From positions 2,208,001 through 2,272,000 of the forward strand of contig CAVRAY010000001.1 in NCBI GenBank assembly GCA_963719225.1: 64,000 nucleotides of DNA. Reading direction: 5' to 3'. This document shows positions 1 to 6,949 of the stretch, one piece after another (position 1 is the stretch's first letter; each line of letters starts with the position of its first letter). Below the pieces are notes generated by a model. It did no database searches and was not told where the DNA came from. It worked only from the letters and a program-made list of their open reading frames with translations. The DNA comes from Thermoanaerobaculia bacterium. GTDB taxonomy: Bacteria > Acidobacteriota > Thermoanaerobaculia > UBA5066. A program made the translations under genes and the position numbers.

Positions 1-2
1 CC

Positions 3-227
3 TTCGACCTGAACGAAAACATTCATCGCTTTCATGACGGGCCGAGTCGCAGGCTCTACATTCACTACACTTCAGGGCTATACGAACTCGTCGTTGCGCG
101 CGCCGTCATTCAAGGGCTTCTTTCCGAGTCGTCGCTTCCCGAGGAAGTTCGCATCCATCTCGCCCCAGCCATTGCGCGTGAGCGAGAGGCCTTGAGGCAG
201 GCGCGCGAACCCGAGAGTGCGGTCTAA
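3..227 (+). CDS. Cassette ORF, 3' part only (hypothetical protein)
   Basis: Open frame from window start (FDLNENIHRF...AREPESAV*); its TAA lies inside the GTCTAAC box of the attC. Confidence 0.65.
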   Translation, partial: FDLNENIHRFHDGPSRRLYIHYTSGLYELVVARAVIQGLLSESSLPEEVRIHLAPAIAREREALRQAREPESAV

Positions 228-301
228 CAACGCGCTGCAGCGGACTCGTCGTCAGTCGCTGCGCTCCTTCCTCCTCGCCGCTGAGCTTGATATCGTTAGG
301 C
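222..301 (+). repeat. attC site
   Basis: GTCTAAC...GCTGCAGCGG...CCGCTGAGC...GTTAGGC; R''/L''/L'/R' imperfect palindrome, 80 bp. Confidence 0.9.
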
Positions 302-335
302 GGTGAATCGCCAAGTTGCCTTAAAGGAGGAGCAA

Positions 336-782
336 ATGCCCAAGACATCGCTGCGATGGTTCAGTGGATTGACCGTATTCGGTCTCGGTCTCGCGCTCGG
401 CGCCTTTGTTCGCGCGGACGCGCAGAAAGAGACCCCGATCAGAAGCGAGCAGGCGGCACCTGAGACGCGAGGTGTTACGGTGAAGCCACTAGCAGCGCTT
501 GACCTTGGCCCTGAAATCGAGGGGATGGCAGGGCGCCAACTTCGAATGCGAATGGTAACTATCGAACCTGGAGGGGTCTTCGGCCCGATTCACAGCCATA
601 AAGACAGGCCCGGCGTGGTCTACATACTGCAAGGAACCATCACTGACCATCGAAATGGAGCGGCTAAGGATTATGGCCCGGGAGTGGGCTGGCCCGAGGA
701 TAAGAACACCACACACTGGCTTGAGAATAGAGGAACGATGTCAGCTGTGGAAATCTCAGTCGATGTATTCAGGCAACAGTAA
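336..782 (+). CDS. Cupin-domain protein with signal peptide (cassette)
   Basis: AAGGAGG RBS before ATG 336; cupin motifs HSH..RPG.VYILQG and H.LENRG. Confidence 0.8.
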   Translation: MPKTSLRWFSGLTVFGLGLALGAFVRADAQKETPIRSEQAAPETRGVTVKPLAALDLGPEIEGMAGRQLRMRMVTIEPGGVFGPIHSHKDRPGVVYILQGTITDHRNGAAKDYGPGVGWPEDKNTTHWLENRGTMSAVEISVDVFRQQ

Positions 783-915
783 GCCCGGGCTTGTTGATCT
801 GCTGGAGACTAGCAACCCGACTGGCAGCGGTATCGTCTTTAGACCGGAAAACCGGGCCGAGGCGGCTGCAGCCCTCAGAGACCTGAGGAAGGGTGGAGCA
901 CCAGATTAACAGGCG

Positions 916-976
916 GCCTAACCCGCGGCTGCAGCGGACGCCCTTGCGGGCGCCGCTGAGCCGCAAGCCGTTAGAC
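916..976 (+). repeat. attC site (59-be type)
   Basis: GCCTAAC-CCGCG-GCTGCAGCGG...CCGCTGAGC-CGCAAGCC-GTTAGAC, 61 bp. Confidence 0.92.
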
Positions 977-996
977 GGCGAAATACATGGTGACGC

Positions 997-1328
997 GTGC
1001 TTCGACTCCTGACTGAGGCCGAGTTCCACGGAACTATGTCCACGCCGATGCGTCGTGTAGGAGAAGACGACCCAATCGCCCCGATCAATCTCAGGTCGTC
1101 CGTGGAAGAGTGCATTTCGCAGTACTCCTTCCAACCACCACAAAGGACATTGAGATTCACCACGCTTACCGAAGCGCCGACGGCATTCACACTCACGTCC
1201 TCTTCTGGTATGGCACGCCGAACAAATACCTCGTTATCGTGCTGGACGAGCCTGGCCGCAATGTAGTCGGGTACCACTTCCTCGACCTGGCCGAGAAGTA
1301 CGGCCTCGTGCCACCGAACGCCGTCTAA
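997..1328 (+). pseudogene. Cassette hypothetical protein, frameshifted near 1125-1132
   Basis: ORFs 997..1266 and 1110..1328 join into one plausible ~110-aa protein whose TAA lies in the GTCTAAC box. Confidence 0.6.
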
Positions 1329-1334
1329 CACCTC
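1323..1334 (+). repeat. Left part of an attC interrupted by the IS
   Basis: GTCTAACACCTC followed directly by IS-end-like ATATCTGGACTCCTCC. Confidence 0.7.
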
Positions 1335-1439
1335 ATATCTGGACTCCTCCTTGGGATCAAGTGCGGGCGGTCTGTGGTTTTTCTCCTTCTAAGAAATCAG
1401 GCGATCCCGGGTCGTCGGGGCGATTCCTGCGTGGGAACG

Positions 1440-1625
1440 CGATCGATGGTGATGAGCGGAGAAGGTCGCGACGGCACTCGTATCTACGGCCTCTTCTGTT
1501 GGAGCCTTCGTGGGCTCCGGGCCAGGATGAAATCCGCACACGGGGAGCCAATCGTTGTGCAACGGCTTCTTGGAGCCAGAGGTGTTATCGGCTTTGCCCC
1601 GTGTCGGTCGGACCGAGCTCATCTG
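1440..1625 (-). ncRNA. Putative bridge RNA / seekRNA region of the IS1111 element
   Basis: Non-coding 3' end of the IS; contains TAACACCTC (1579-1587) and GTTGCAC (1557-1563) matching attC, and AGATACGAG (1477-1485) matching the IS-end junction; boundaries approximate. Confidence 0.6.
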
Positions 1626-1685
1626 TCGCATCTTTCGCGTTCGTCGGCGGGAAGGGCTGACGGGTTTCTCTCCCACTTTCTCGTT

Positions 1686-2160
1686 TCAGGCAGAAGCGGT
1701 TGCTGGAGGGTTCTGAGCGGCGAACCTGGCCTTGAACGGCTCGCCCCGCGTTGCGACGGCCCAGATGATCCGGGCGAGCTTGTTTGCGACGGCGACTGCG
1801 GCGCGGTTTCGCCCGCGCCTGTTCTCGACCTCGAGCGCCCATTGCTGCAGGTCATGCGGCCTTTTCCTGCGATGGGCCGAGAGCAGCATCGAGCGGGCCC
1901 CGCCGATCAAAAGCGTCCTGAGGTACGGGTCTCCGGCCTTGCTGATCGACCCGAGCCACCTTCTCTTTCCGCTCGAGCTTTCCTTCGGCGTCAGCCCGAG
2001 CGAGCTCGCAAACTTCCGTCCCGACTTGAAGCGCAGGAAGTCTCCGACCATCGCAGAAAACGCCGTGGCGTTCAGGAGACCTACACCCGGAATCGTCTCG
2101 AGCCTCTCGACGAGAGGAGCCGTCCGGGCCAGGGCCTTCAGCTGCTTTTCGACCTGCCCG
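1686..2160 (-). pseudogene. IS110 transposase, C-terminal fragment
   Basis: Frame reads LETIPGVGLLNA...RFKSGRKFASSLGLTPKESSSG...GSISKAGDPYLRTLL...AVANKLARIIWA; N-terminal DEDD domain absent. Confidence 0.9.
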
Positions 2161-2226
2161 CTGCTGAACCGGCGGCAGGAGAGCGTCCAGCCGTCGCTTC
2201 GTTAGGCGGCAGAAAGCGCTGCCACG

Positions 2227-2459
2227 TTGGATTTCGAGCTTCTCTCTCCGATCACCGGGATCGAGACCATCGCACGCGGCGCGGCCATTCGCGAGGTCGC
2301 CCGGCTACGTCGGGCTCATGGTTCGGGCGCTGGCTCAAGCGGAAGGGCATCGCTTTCGTCCGCGCCGCCCATGGTCTAACCTATCGCGCGGAGATTCACT
2401 GGTATGAAGCGAGGGGCATCGGGCGCAAGGAACTCAAGGTCAAGCGGTACCTCCCGTAG
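2227..2459 (+). pseudogene. Small conserved hypothetical protein (toxin-like), frameshifted near 2320-2327
   Basis: TTG start MDFELLSPITGIETIARGAAIREVARLRRAHG, then after a frameshift GRWLKRKGIA...AEIHWYEARGIGRKELKVKRYLP*. Confidence 0.6.
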
Positions 2460-2573
2460 CGCGTTGTCGACGAGTCGGGCGAGGACTACGTCTATCCGAA
2501 GAACCTCTTCAGGGCCATCACTCTTCCTGCCCAGGTTCAGCGCGCGCTCGGTCACGCGGTCCCTGCTGCCTAA
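2460..2573 (+). pseudogene. C-terminal remnant of partner hypothetical protein
   Basis: RVVDESGEDYVYPKNLFRAITLP...AA*, no start codon; stop inside GCCTAAC. Confidence 0.55.
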
Positions 2574-2606
2574 CAACGCGCTGTAGCGGAATCGCTGCGC
2601 TCGCCG
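2568..2606 (+). repeat. Truncated attC (right arm deleted)
   Basis: GCCTAACAACGCGCTGTAGCGGAATCGCTGCGCTCGCCG, close to attC 222-301 but with no GTTRRRY. Confidence 0.7.
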
Positions 2607-2612
2607 CAAAAC

Positions 2613-2921
2613 ATGCCAGTCAGCGTTCGTTACTTCGTCGACGTACTCGGCTTCGAGCAGGCAACCTGGGGAACGGACGACTTTACGCACGTCGGGCGCG
2701 ATGGAAGGGGCATCTACCTCTGCCGAGGCGGCCAGGGAAATGCAGGAGCTTGGGTCTGGGTCGGCGTTGGCGACGTTCGCGCTCTCTACCGCGCATACAA
2801 GGAGCGCGGCGCAATCATCAGGCAGGAGCCCACGAACCGGCCGTGGGCACTCGAAATGCAAATTCAAGATCCGGATGGCAACGTGCTCCGATTCGGATCG
2901 GACCCAGAGGAACAAACGTAG
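2613..2921 (+). CDS. VOC/glyoxalase/bleomycin-resistance family protein, probably N-truncated
   Basis: YFVDVLGF and PWALEMQIQDPDGNVLRFG motifs; first beta-strand appears missing. Confidence 0.75.
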   Translation: MPVSVRYFVDVLGFEQATWGTDDFTHVGRDGRGIYLCRGGQGNAGAWVWVGVGDVRALYRAYKERGAIIRQEPTNRPWALEMQIQDPDGNVLRFGSDPEEQT

Positions 2922-3163
2922 GTTTCGAGAACGACAGTCCTCTTCATGAGCTCATCCGCAATGTTCCGCACGTCGCCCTTGAGGTGGACGATCTCGACGC
3001 CGCTCTCGAAGGTCAGGAGATCATTCATCCCCCCGGTTCCCCATCCGACGGCGTTCGCTCGGCCATGATCGTCCACAACGGCGCGCCGGTTGAATTCATC
3101 TGGTTCCGAAAGCGCCATGATATCGATGTGGGGCAGGTCCCGTGTCTTCTCGCATACGACTAG
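2918..3163 (+). pseudogene. C-terminal fragment of a VOC-like protein
   Basis: SPLHELIRNVPHVALEVDDLDAALEG...VRSAMIVHNGAPVEFIWF with no proper start. Confidence 0.55.
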
Positions 3164-3531
3164 GCTTCTTCCAGGAGCTCATGGGTGCGGACTCGGTTCT
3201 CTTGCACGGCACGCCGCCGGAGATCAACGCTCTCGTTCCACGGCTCTACGAATTCCTGGCCTCGCCTCTCGACGAATGGCCGATTCACGAACATGCTCTC
3301 GTTTCCAGTCACCGTCCCGTGCGCCTCTTCGCCTCGCGCTTCGGCATGACGAGCAGAAGCGGCTACCGCTGGCGCTGTTCGCCCGCAGAGCTGCCTTCCA
3401 TCCAGGCCGCGCTCCAGGCCTTGGCCGTTTCAGGCTCCGGCCACACGTACTTCATGCTCGCGGGCTCCACAGCTCGGCTGATCGTCTCGGCAGGCGAGTA
3501 CCCGGATACCTGGTGGCAGGCAAACGCCTGA
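3142..3531 (+). CDS. Hypothetical protein (probable last cassette ORF)
   Basis: 129-aa ORF on cassette strand ending in GCCTGAC (possible degenerate R'' box). Confidence 0.5.
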   Translation: MSSRIRLGFFQELMGADSVLLHGTPPEINALVPRLYEFLASPLDEWPIHEHALVSSHRPVRLFASRFGMTSRSGYRWRCSPAELPSIQAALQALAVSGSGHTYFMLAGSTARLIVSAGEYPDTWWQANA

Positions 3532-3650
3532 CAGCTTCTGGGTCGTGGCGTCAGTAATTTTCCCACCCTGCGCGGTGGTCGGCGGCCGCCGGCATCGCCA
3601 TCCGGAGGCTCTTCAGGGTTGCGTGACGAGCCTGCTACGCTCAGGGCCCC

Positions 3651-4553
3651 GTGCACGACATCGTCGGCGTTCTCGTCAACTCGCTCCTGGCCGCCGGCCT
3701 TTACGCCACGATGGCGTACGGGCTCGCGGTGATCTACGGGGTCATGCGCATCATCAACCTCGCACACGCGGGGATCATGATGTTGGGGGCGTACACGACG
3801 TTCACGCTCTTCACGCGGTTCTCGATGGATCCCTTCCTTTCGAGTCTCGTCGTCGTGCCCGTGTTCTTCGCCGGCGGCGTCGTCCTCTACCGGACGGTCG
3901 TCCGGCGTCTTCCGCGATCGGGGTCGACGCCCTCGATGGAAAGCCTCCTGCTCCTTTTCGGCGTGTGGCTCGTCCTCCAGAACCTCGCGTACGTGCTCTG
4001 GAGCGGAGACACCCAGTCGATCCTGACCTCCTACACGCTCAAGTCGGTCTCTCTCCTCGGCGTGCGCGTGGGCGTACCCGCGCTCGGGGTCTTCGGCATG
4101 TCCGCGCTCTCTCTCCTCATCCTGGAATTCGTCCTCCACCGCACGTACCTCGGGAAGGCGATCCGGGCGGTCACCCAGAACCGTGACGCCGCTCTTCTCT
4201 CCGGCGTGGACGCCGACCGGATCTCCGCGATCGCGTTCGGCATCGGAACGGCCTTTGCCGGGCTCGCGGGCACTCTCCTGTCCACGCTCTTCGCGTTCAC
4301 CCCCGACTTCGGGCGGAGCTTCCTGCTCAAGGCCTTCTGCATCATCGTGCTCGGCGGCCTCGAGAGCGTGACCGGCGTCGCCGCGGGGGCCTTCGTCCTC
4401 GCCCTCCTCGAGAACGGGACGGCGGCGTTCACGTCCGTCCCGACGTCTCTCCAGGACGCTCTCAGCTTCACGCTCCTCGTCGTCACGCTCGTCGTGCTGC
4501 CCCACGGACTCCCGGGACTCCTCCGCCTCGTGCGCGCACGGGGTAGCGGGTGA
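3651..4553 (+). CDS. livH: Branched-chain amino acid ABC transporter permease (LivH-like)
   Basis: GLAVIYGVMRIINLAH, GKAIRAV.QN motifs; hydrophobic. Confidence 0.9.
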   Translation: MHDIVGVLVNSLLAAGLYATMAYGLAVIYGVMRIINLAHAGIMMLGAYTTFTLFTRFSMDPFLSSLVVVPVFFAGGVVLYRTVVRRLPRSGSTPSMESLLLLFGVWLVLQNLAYVLWSGDTQSILTSYTLKSVSLLGVRVGVPALGVFGMSALSLLILEFVLHRTYLGKAIRAVTQNRDAALLSGVDADRISAIAFGIGTAFAGLAGTLLSTLFAFTPDFGRSFLLKAFCIIVLGGLESVTGVAAGAFVLALLENGTAAFTSVPTSLQDALSFTLLVVTLVVLPHGLPGLLRLVRARGSG

Positions 4554-5497
4554 GCTCGAAGAGATCGCTCGAGGCTGCCGGCATGCTCGCGGCGGCGGCC
4601 GCGCTTTTCTTCGCTCCCTCCTACCTCGAAAGGGGCACGCTGAACGACGTCTGGAGCGTCGCGCTGGCCGTCGTCCTCGCCTCCTCGTGGAATCTTCTCG
4701 GAGGCTTCGCGGGACAGGTTTCGATCGGCTATTCGGCCTTCCTCGGGATCGGCGCGTACACGACCGTCCTCCTCGCGCTGCGGGGCGTGTCCCCCGTCCT
4801 CACGCTGCCGCTCGGGGCGCTCTTTGCGGCGGCCTTCTCGGTGATCATCGGCTACCCGACGTTCCGACTCCGCGGGCCTTACTTCACGATCGCCACGATC
4901 GGCGTCGGCGAGGCCGTGCGCGTCGTGGCGTCCAGCGTCGCGTTCGCGGGCGGCGCGAGCGGGCTGAGGATGCCCGCCGGGTCCTTCGATTTCGAATCGA
5001 ACTTCCGCGCCATGACGCTCCTCGCCGTGGCCCTGGTCTGGATCGCGCTCGTCGTCTCGCGAAGCGCCTTCGGATCGGCCCTTGCCGCCGTGAAGCAGGA
5101 CATCGACGCCGCCGAGGCTCTCGGCGTGAACTCCACGCGGCTGAAGGTCATCGTGCATGCCCTCTCGGCCGCGCTGGTCGGCCTCGCCGGGGGCCTGTTC
5201 GCGATCAACTTCCAGTACGTGTCGCCCGGCTCGGTGTTCGACTTTCGCCTGAGCCTCACGATCGTGCTGATGCCGATCGTCGGCGGAGTCGGCACCGTCG
5301 CGGGACCCGTTCTCGGCGCGATCCTGTTCGGCTGGCTCCAGCTCAAGCTCCTGTCGATCCCCGCCCTCCTCAACTCCTCGCTCTTCATCTACGGGGCGCT
5401 CCTGATCGCGGTCATGCTCTTCGAGCCGAAAGGACTTCTCGGCCTCGTGAAGCGCCTTTCCGCGCGCCGCCTCAAGCGCTTCTACACCGATGCCTGA
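4550..5497 (+). CDS. livM: Branched-chain amino acid ABC transporter permease (LivM-like)
   Basis: WNLLGGFAGQVSIG, RLRGPYFTIAT motifs. Confidence 0.9.
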   Translation: MSSKRSLEAAGMLAAAAALFFAPSYLERGTLNDVWSVALAVVLASSWNLLGGFAGQVSIGYSAFLGIGAYTTVLLALRGVSPVLTLPLGALFAAAFSVIIGYPTFRLRGPYFTIATIGVGEAVRVVASSVAFAGGASGLRMPAGSFDFESNFRAMTLLAVALVWIALVVSRSAFGSALAAVKQDIDAAEALGVNSTRLKVIVHALSAALVGLAGGLFAINFQYVSPGSVFDFRLSLTIVLMPIVGGVGTVAGPVLGAILFGWLQLKLLSIPALLNSSLFIYGALLIAVMLFEPKGLLGLVKRLSARRLKRFYTDA

Positions 5498-6233
5498 GCC
5501 CATCGTCTCCGTCCGCGCGCTCACGAAGCGCTTCGGGGGCCTCGTGGCCGTCAAGGCCGTTTCGTTCGACGTCGCGGCGGGCGAGATCTTCGGCGTCATC
5601 GGCCCGAACGGCGCCGGCAAGACGACCCTGTTTTCGTGCCTGACGGGCGCGCAGCGCCCCACGTCGGGCTCCGTTCATCTTCGGGGAGAGCGCCTCGACG
5701 GACTGCCGGTCTGGGCCGTCGCGCACCGCGGGCTCGTGCGCACGCACCAGATCGTGCGGCCGTTTCGCGAGATGACCGTGGCGGACAACGTGGCCGTCGG
5801 AGCACGCTTCGGCAGGGGTCGAAGGCGTGGAGCCGACGAAAGCGCCCGCATCCACGAGATTCTCGAGCGCACCGGCCTCGTCGCGCGGGCCGGTTCTCTC
5901 GCGGGCACGCTGACCCTCGGCGACCTCAAGCGCCTCGAGATCGCCCGGGCGCTCGCGACCGAGCCCGACGTCCTGTGCCTGGACGAGATCATGGGAGGCC
6001 TGAACCCCGCCGAGATCAACTCCGCCATGGCGCTCGTCCGGGAGATGCGTGATCAGGGCCTGACGATCCTCCTCATCGAGCACCACGTCCACGCCGTGGT
6101 CGGGCTTTCGGATCGGATTCTCGTCCTGAACTTCGGCGAGAGGATCGCCGAGGGGCGTCCCGAGGAGGCGCTGCGCGATCCGGCCGTGGTCGCCGCCTAC
6201 TTCGGCGACGTTCCGGAGGAGGCCGCCCCGTGA
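5490..6233 (+). CDS. livG: ABC transporter ATP-binding protein (LivG-like)
   Basis: KRFGGL, GPNGAGKTT, LDE, IEH. Confidence 0.9.
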   Translation: MPEPIVSVRALTKRFGGLVAVKAVSFDVAAGEIFGVIGPNGAGKTTLFSCLTGAQRPTSGSVHLRGERLDGLPVWAVAHRGLVRTHQIVRPFREMTVADNVAVGARFGRGRRRGADESARIHEILERTGLVARAGSLAGTLTLGDLKRLEIARALATEPDVLCLDEIMGGLNPAEINSAMALVREMRDQGLTILLIEHHVHAVVGLSDRILVLNFGERIAEGRPEEALRDPAVVAAYFGDVPEEAAP

Positions 6234-6949
6234 GCCTCCTCGCCGTCGAGAGCCTCGACGTCTTCCATGGAAACGTCCAGGCCGTATGGGACGTCTCGTT
6301 CCGCGTCGAGGCCGGAGAAATCCTGACGCTCGTGGGCGCGAACGGCGCCGGGAAATCGACTCTGTTGAAGACGATCGCGGGCCTCCTTCCGGCCCGGCGC
6401 GGGCGCATCCTCTTCGACGGGCGCGACCTCTCGGACCGGCCGGCCCACACGCGGGCTCCCGACGGCCTCGTGCTCGTGCCGGAGGCGCGCCAGCTCTGGC
6501 CGGGCATGACGGTTCTCGAGAATCTCGAGATGGGGGCGTGGGGAAGGAGGGCGCGGTCGGATTCCTCGCGGACGCTCGACGAGATCTTCGCCATGTTCCC
6601 GGTTCTCGAGGAGCGCCATGCCCAGAAAGCCGGCACGCTATCGGGAGGAGAGCAGCAGATGTGCGCGATCGGCCGCGGCCTCATGGCCCGCCCGCGCCTC
6701 CTTCTCCTCGACGAGCCGGCTCTCGGCCTTTCCCCGCGCCTCGTCCGAGAGGTCTTCGCCTCGCTTTCCGCGATTCGCAAGGCCGGCGTCACGGTGCTCC
6801 TCGTCGAGCAGAACGTCGCTCATGCCCTCGCGCTCGCCGACCACGCCTGCGTCCTCGAGACGGGCCGCGTCACGCTCACGGGGCTCGCGCGCGACCTCGC
6901 CGCCGACCCGCGCGTGAGGGAGGAGTTCCTCGGGGTGTCGGCGGTATGA
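6230..6949 (+). CDS. livF: ABC transporter ATP-binding protein (LivF-like)
   Basis: GANGAGKST, LSGGEQQM, LLDEP, VEQN. Confidence 0.9.
   Translation: MSLLAVESLDVFHGNVQAVWDVSFRVEAGEILTLVGANGAGKSTLLKTIAGLLPARRGRILFDGRDLSDRPAHTRAPDGLVLVPEARQLWPGMTVLENLEMGAWGRRARSDSSRTLDEIFAMFPVLEERHAQKAGTLSGGEQQMCAIGRGLMARPRLLLLDEPALGLSPRLVREVFASLSAIRKAGVTVLLVEQNVAHALALADHACVLETGRVTLTGLARDLAADPRVREEFLGVSAV

Follow-up and report, generated by a model that had tools for sequence, protein, structure and literature searches.

A probable seek/bridge RNA in the non-coding end of an IS1111-type element inserted in attC sites of a Thermoanaerobaculia genome

An IS1111-type element interrupts an integron attC site near the start of the window, the stretch of 64,000 nucleotides analysed here (C1:2208001-2272000 of a 4.75-Mb genome of 68% GC). 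The question is whether its downstream non-coding end encodes an RNA whose guides match the site in which it sits, as a first-pass annotation made from the letters alone had proposed, and which strands of attC such guides would read. The region is best explained as the 3' non-coding end of a five-copy, attC-inserting IS1111 element that likely encodes a seek/bridge RNA, with target guides directed to opposite strands of double-stranded attC (probability approximately 0.92). Three guides (both target guides and the guide for the left end) covary with their DNA partners among relatives, and the guide for the right end is nearly invariant, with one covarying position. The features are listed in Table 1.

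Table 1. Coordinates of the truncated element, its interrupted attC site and the predicted RNA features in the window
Feature	Position	Strand	Remarks
Interrupted attC, left part	1323..1335	+	R'' box 1323-1329, spacer ACCTC 1330-1334, L'' first base 1335
5'-truncated IS1111-family element	1336..2165	-	Intact length 1,497 bp; left end and codons 1-192 missing
Right-end extension GATA	1336..1339	-	Beyond the subterminal repeat; with base 1340 forms the left donor sequence AGATA
Right subterminal inverted repeat	1340..1352	-	13 bp; perfect versus the left repeat of intact copies
Predicted -35 hexamer TTGATC	1355..1360	-	17 nt from TAGGAT (-10), which would arise solely on the circle junction
Putative seek/bridge RNA core, conserved	1474..1605	-	Target-binding loop 1538-1605, donor-binding loop 1474-1537
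Left-donor guide AGAUACG	1479..1485	-	Equals right end AGATA followed by the crossover dinucleotide YG
Right-donor guide UUCAUCC	1525..1531	-	Complementary to left end GGATGAA; 29-37 of 37 pairs match per position
Left-target guide loop UUG-CA-CAACG	1553..1562	-	CAACG (1553-1557) corresponds to -3 to +2; predicted to pair with attC top strand
Apical hairpin between target guides	1563..1578	-	Helix 3; 5 pairs, 3 changed on both sides
Right-target guide UAACACCUC	1579..1587	-	Predicted to pair with attC bottom strand, +2 to +10; unpaired in consensus; covaries with flank
DEDD transposase 3' remnant	1686..2165	-	Codons 193-351; PF02371 with SG motif; no RuvC domain

The element, its copies and its insertion site

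The genome contains five copies of the element, all of them in attC sites, and the family assignment made earlier is borne out by domains and repeats. The four copies other than that of the window are intact and encode a protein of 351 amino acids in which PF01548 and PF02371 both score over cut-off. Residues D10, E52, D89, D92 and S257-G258 were assigned in this transposase to what we take to be the DEDD and SG motifs; the full DEDD plus C-terminal SG signature of the IS1111 family is present in the 351-residue protein and absent from the truncated window copy. The window copy is 99-100% identical to the intact copies, with one at 98%, over approximately 1312-2165. It would be immobile because its left end and RuvC domain are lost, and its RNA region is intact. 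Non-coding DNA occupies 350 bp downstream of the transposase (1336-1685) versus about 90 bp upstream. All four intact copies have perfect 13-bp subterminal repeats, within the 11-13 bp of the IS1111 family, of which the window copy retains the right one only; 8 bp (left) and 4 bp (right) lie outside the perfect repeat, or 7 and 3 bp, the family values, if the mismatched outer pair is counted in. The plasmid relatives have terminal extensions of 7 and 3 bp, with that outer pair matched. Two other relatives (L089 and L113) carry a tandem duplication of the final 14-18 bases of their right ends.

All five copies share one insertion point in attC, between the first and second bases of L'', and one orientation, which is opposite to that of the cassettes. 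The right end of the window copy, which the first-pass annotation had put at 1335, is one base further on, base 1335 belonging to attC, and the layout of 1323-1335 is that of the empty attC sites. Rejoining the flanks gives an attC of normal length in three of the four intact copies and one 2 bp short in the fourth, with no target duplication; a 2-bp target duplication or an IS621-like CT core was rejected because attC lengths then come out wrong. In the orientation of the element the target reads CTGCAR, cut, YGAGGTGTTA. A pattern composed of the left flank and the first target guide (up to 2 mismatches) was found at 11 sites in the 4.75 Mb, all of them attC, which indicates selectivity and not discovery, because the pattern was built from the known site. 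The attC sites with an ACCTC or CCCTC spacer, which best fit the first guide, are all occupied (4/4), versus 1 of 17 other attC-like sites, although the occupied sites are not independent events because cassettes may have arrived with the element already in place. Because the ACCTC spacer occurs in occupied sites only, the element might itself bring in or rewrite this spacer; the idea was rejected, since relatives that share one guide (L044-L048) have differing flanks. Split attC sites would likely be lost to the integrase until the element leaves.

Four copies are located in a cassette array at C1:2197-2211 kb with no integron integrase adjoining, and the fifth is in an array beside the sole integrase that scores over the TIGR02249 cut-off (C1:1115046-1115984). 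The integrase-less array (window 1-3550; L001:7200-20000) is about 1.09 Mb from this integrase. Its cassettes include a cupin gene (303-782) and a glyoxalase-family gene (2613-2921), an IS3-type element and a DUF772/DDE element are present in or beside it, and its attC sites have an unusually long 8-nt spacer preceding R'. The array end (window 2161-2606) is decayed, with the insertion sequence stopping at about 2165, either by real decay or through assembly error; the cassette next to it matches C1:2203537-2204067 at 92-97% but lacks about 120 bp, and no right arm is present in the attC at 2568-2605. Genes named from their translations as a branched-chain amino-acid ABC-type permease and ATPase follow the array (3651-6949). 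Rfam found nothing real in window positions 1-4000 (3 matches, E 2-4).

The flank of the copy at C1:2200824 (L087) is 2 bp short and matches the first guide at 6/9. Flanks 2 bp under the usual spacer length were also observed in L050 and L085, always at a CGCG run, and an empty attC (C1:1103062) is short like these flanks; they may be natural variants, or else products of slipped insertion and, for the empty site, a scar of excision. A doubtful proposal is that bulge-tolerant guides would permit a 2-bp slip in CGCG spacers, that insertion and excision would shorten attC, and that two guide RNAs would compete for each site; if true, integron recombination sites would be edited by an RNA-guided element. 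A second, distant IS1111-like element with PF01548 and PF02371, 15-bp subterminal repeats and a best plasmid match of 34% is present in two copies (L002:3834-5330 and L002:5930-7427; C1 about 1107833-1109330 and 1109930-1111422). Its insertions are in the attC sites used by the first element, at a distance of 11 bp from it, and one site carries both elements. Its downstream region contains AUUGCAGCG, complementary to its right flank, and AUGGAAG, which matches its right end. An end of this second element was found at the same attC position in L023, L027, L041, L048, L049 and L078.

Target guides and the strands they would read

Relatives were collected by genome and metagenome scans, three related-genome searches and five plasmid regions, giving 126 loci with a transposase match, which include some DNA fetched twice and four loci from the window's own genome. 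Both ends, both flanks and all guides were obtained from 66 of the 126, yielding 37 distinct target-guide pairs; the other 60, cut by contig ends or too divergent for the patterns, were left out. The nearest named relatives carrying the element are Acidobacteriota bins. The best protein match among at least 5,000 from plasmids is ISPa25 (47.5%), and comparison of the non-coding region with plasmids gave no significant DNA match (4 short matches, E 0.09-0.3). L098 (ISPa25), L099, L100 and L101 (ISPa62) are inserted at the attC position of the window element, and the L102 (ISPa21) locus is not in attC at that position. A clade of 34 rows in the transposase tree (support 95/95) holds the window element, L098-L102 and elements with non-attC targets.

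The match from which the first-pass annotation started is real: TAACACCTC is present at 1326-1334 on the forward strand and at 1579-1587 on the reverse strand, and the assignment of the first target guide to the bottom strand of attC was correct. This 9-mer occurs 3 times in the window versus 0.04 expected, the third occurrence (469-477, in the cupin gene) looking like chance. When the non-coding region was shuffled, it still had an exact 9-mer in common with the 20-nt flank in 388 of 20,000 shuffles; the match alone is thus only modestly above chance, and covariation in relatives carries the case. Permutation tests on the 37 pairs ignored relatedness and used parsing patterns written after the sequences were seen, and for both reasons overstate significance; with that limit, complementarity of the first guide to positions +2 to +10 averaged 5.57 for cognate pairs versus 4.84 for permuted pairs, a value reached by 0 of 10,000 permutations (3,444 of 10,000 for the other strand). 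In a fixed register, 19-28 of the 37 pairs match per position, which is low because the register shifts by one base between lineages.

Another reading is that the matches arose by chance or are left over from flanks captured long ago, and that the protein chooses the site by recognising attC. In its favour are the 9-mer matches in about 2% of shuffles, the copy matching its first guide at only 6/9, and the one or two flank mismatches often seen in relatives. It is extremely unlikely, considering that three guides change together with their DNA partners in lineages of 42-100% protein identity, whether the target is attC or not, that the fourth matches the right end almost invariably, that all guides are located in conserved loops, and that the RNA of a family member, ISEc11, is required and reprogrammable according to PMC11187229.

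The second target guide was only partly recognised. GTTGCAC is present at 1557-1563 on the reverse strand as annotated, but its first G (1563) belongs to the stem of the hairpin, and the conserved part of the guide, CAACG, lies mostly outside this segment. The five CAACG positions equal the top strand of the element's target in 32, 35, 31, 26 and 35 of the 37 pairs, with several base types represented at -3 and all four at -2 and -1, and the two target guides overlap at a shared G, position +2. Both target guides had been assigned to the bottom strand, which would suit the folded single-stranded attC used by the integron integrase. Joined, the two segments do resemble the top strands of neighbouring attC sites, GCCGUUGCAC resembles the attC right arm GCCGCTGAAC at 8/10 by eye, and attC is termed a potentially folded structure in the available part of PMC11187229. 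The join looked collinear because the attC box GCTGCAGC is palindromic and so reads alike on either strand. Under the opposite-strand model (identity of the second guide to the left flank), the cognate mean was 4.92 versus 4.44 permuted, reached by 0 of 10,000 permutations, whereas the same-strand model scored at chance (4.36 versus 4.37; 5,464 of 10,000). With one row per left-flank hexamer (n=19) the counts were 0 and 4,186 of 10,000, respectively, and with non-palindromic targets only (n=14) they were 0 and 3,745 of 10,000. Further points against the same-strand assignment are that its GCCG is in a covarying stem, that the final five bases of the guide track the duplex flank position by position (with A, G, C and T changes at -1), and that sister elements with linear non-attC targets share the RNA scaffold. 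The same-strand assignment is thereby largely refuted and very unlikely.

Elements with non-attC targets obey the opposite-strand rule, as with the L114-type guide TCACCACG and left flank TTCACCA, CGGCACCG with GGGCAC in L082, and GTTTCAGCG with CTTCAG in L116. The linear non-attC targets of L082, L104, L114 and L116 are the cleanest single cases for this rule. Sister elements of one such type (L104, L114, L115, L117, L123, L132 and L133) have left flank TTYCACCA and right flank CGGGCTGCTAG, with a probable resemblance to the end of another insertion sequence. The preferred opposite-strand reading predicts that the guides of this clade read duplex attC on both strands and not a folded strand.

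A 2-nt bulge, placed by eye, would allow the UUG of the second guide loop to pair with -6 to -4, which is likely. Without a gap, position -4 matches in only 10 of the 37 pairs; 0-3 extra bases separate UUG from CAACG in the window lineage, and a bulge is therefore inferred. An ungapped GTTGCAC register on the opposite strand would be possible for the window copy, but was rejected, its two middle bases varying freely in close relatives.

The RNA scaffold and the donor guides

Structure was analysed by RNAalifold and pair counts in 30 sequences (the window copy and 29 representatives at <90% identity, from 60 distinct sequences) over 149 columns. The consensus comprises five helices, in which 97% of cells pair and 12 of 23 pairs are changed on both sides; helices 4 and 5 have no two-sided change. 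Slid alignments pair at 30-44%, and 0 of 500 shuffles, which ignore relatedness, reach any of the measures; the fold of the single window sequence has z = -2.16. The small GGCT/AGCC hairpin noted earlier is confirmed as covarying (1574-1578 with 1563-1567), and the non-coding region, for which folding and alignment to IS1111-attC elements had been advised, can be aligned with those of ISPa25 and ISPa62. All four guides, one pair for the target and one for the donor ends, are in loops of a conserved two-loop RNA, and not in stems without covariation, an outcome that would have spoken against guides. Together with the four intact copies, the full-length copies that had been called for, and the guide/flank covariation among relatives, these results make it likely that the region encodes the proposed seek/bridge RNA, with guides for target and donor. 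Supplementary Table 1 of PMC11187229 gives an ISKpn4 sequence to which, by eye, the non-coding region of L099 is close.

The donor match of the first-pass annotation, AGATACGAG at 1477-1485 on the reverse strand, stands for its first 7 nt, which match in 28-37 of the 37 pairs per position; the last two match in 15 and 20 of 37. For the retained part, AGAUACG, the matches are 35, 37, 37, 37, 37, 28 and 35 of 37, and G and T covary with the partner at the second position. The fourth guide, UUCAUCC, had been overlooked because the window copy lost its left end; it covaries with the left end of the element (0, 1 and 18 of 10,000 permutations in the subsets of 37, 19 and 14, respectively). A reading that departs from the preferred one solely in the role of the second loop is that the working RNA is the seekRNA proper, a short target loop of about 70-100 nt, the donor loop being part of a precursor and the ends being read by the protein through the subterminal repeats. 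The perfect 13-bp repeats would fit this, as would the accessible description in PMC11187229 of predominant co-purified RNAs of 70-100 nt with target matches alone; we regard it as unlikely, and retain the two-loop RNA with four guides.

Joining the ends in silico gives TTGATC, 17 nt and TAGGAT, a predicted junction promoter by analogy with PMC11187229. None of 24 sequencing runs screened contained half of the words. In four RNA libraries, contigs of relatives (mostly 85-99% alike) span the whole element, small RNA being beyond the power of these libraries; the contigs contained no circle joint and no RNA ends, and are uninformative on expression either way.

Proposed mechanism and comparison with known systems

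By analogy with the family, an intact copy would be excised as a circle, the joined ends would form the promoter for transposase and RNA, and the donor loop would hold the circle junction. The target loop would then open attC, with the first guide on the bottom strand (+2 to +10) and the second on the top strand (-3 to +2, probably reaching back to -6 over the bulge), overlapping at the shared G. The DEDD/serine recombinase would join the strands without duplicating the target, so that L'' is divided between its first and second bases.

Tetu and Holmes (2008) and Post and Hall (2009) reportedly named an IS1111-attC group. A literature search by term, with most subscription papers outside its coverage, found no study of the present lineage. 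The idea of a natural guide aimed at attC holds, but it was already published: PMC11187229 (Siddiquee et al. 2024), in its accessible text, describes seekRNAs for the attC-targeting ISKpn4 and ISPst6 and a predicted one for ISPa25, the order being a top-strand match followed by a bottom-strand match. According to PMC11208160 (Durrant et al. 2024), 93% of IS1111 elements are predicted to carry a bridge RNA in their right end, and a multi-loop often holds the donor nucleotides. PMC13626964 (Hiraizumi et al. 2026) treats IS621 excision, and attC is unmentioned in the part available. The mechanism itself is not new, having been published in 2024, and knowledge of it is unchanged. With the present analysis the attC-targeting IS1111 elements gain an Acidobacteriota-type lineage in which all four guides are mapped to the base, together with a natural series of reprogrammed relatives with attC and non-attC targets on one RNA scaffold. 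These may be useful for engineering IS1111 recombinases and for counting cassette arrays locked by split attC sites.

The window element is like ISPa25 and ISPa62 of plasmids in attC position, orientation and alignable RNA scaffold, and like the IS1111-attC group (ISPa25, ISKpn4, ISPst6, ISPa21, ISPa62) in subterminal repeats that start with TGGACTC; their transposases fall in one 95/95 clade, which also holds elements with non-attC targets. As in the seekRNAs of ISKpn4 and ISPst6, so far as their published description was accessible, a top-strand guide is 5' of a bottom-strand guide and the two overlap in the target. Unlike that group, it has only 42-47.5% protein identity to its members, its host is likely an Acidobacteriota lineage, the guides of its lineage are tuned to a GC-rich type of attC, and its second guide loop is 2 nt longer. 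The two loops, four guides and dual-strand pairing with target and donor resemble those of IS621 and of the predicted IS1111 bridge RNAs in the accessible accounts, as do the circle-junction promoter (predicted here) and the DEDD and serine recombinase. Compared with IS621 as described in the same accounts, the RNA of the window element is in the right end, the right-target guide comes first, the subterminal repeats are long, and the shared crossover is a single invariant G (target YG, donor GG or TG) instead of a CT core.
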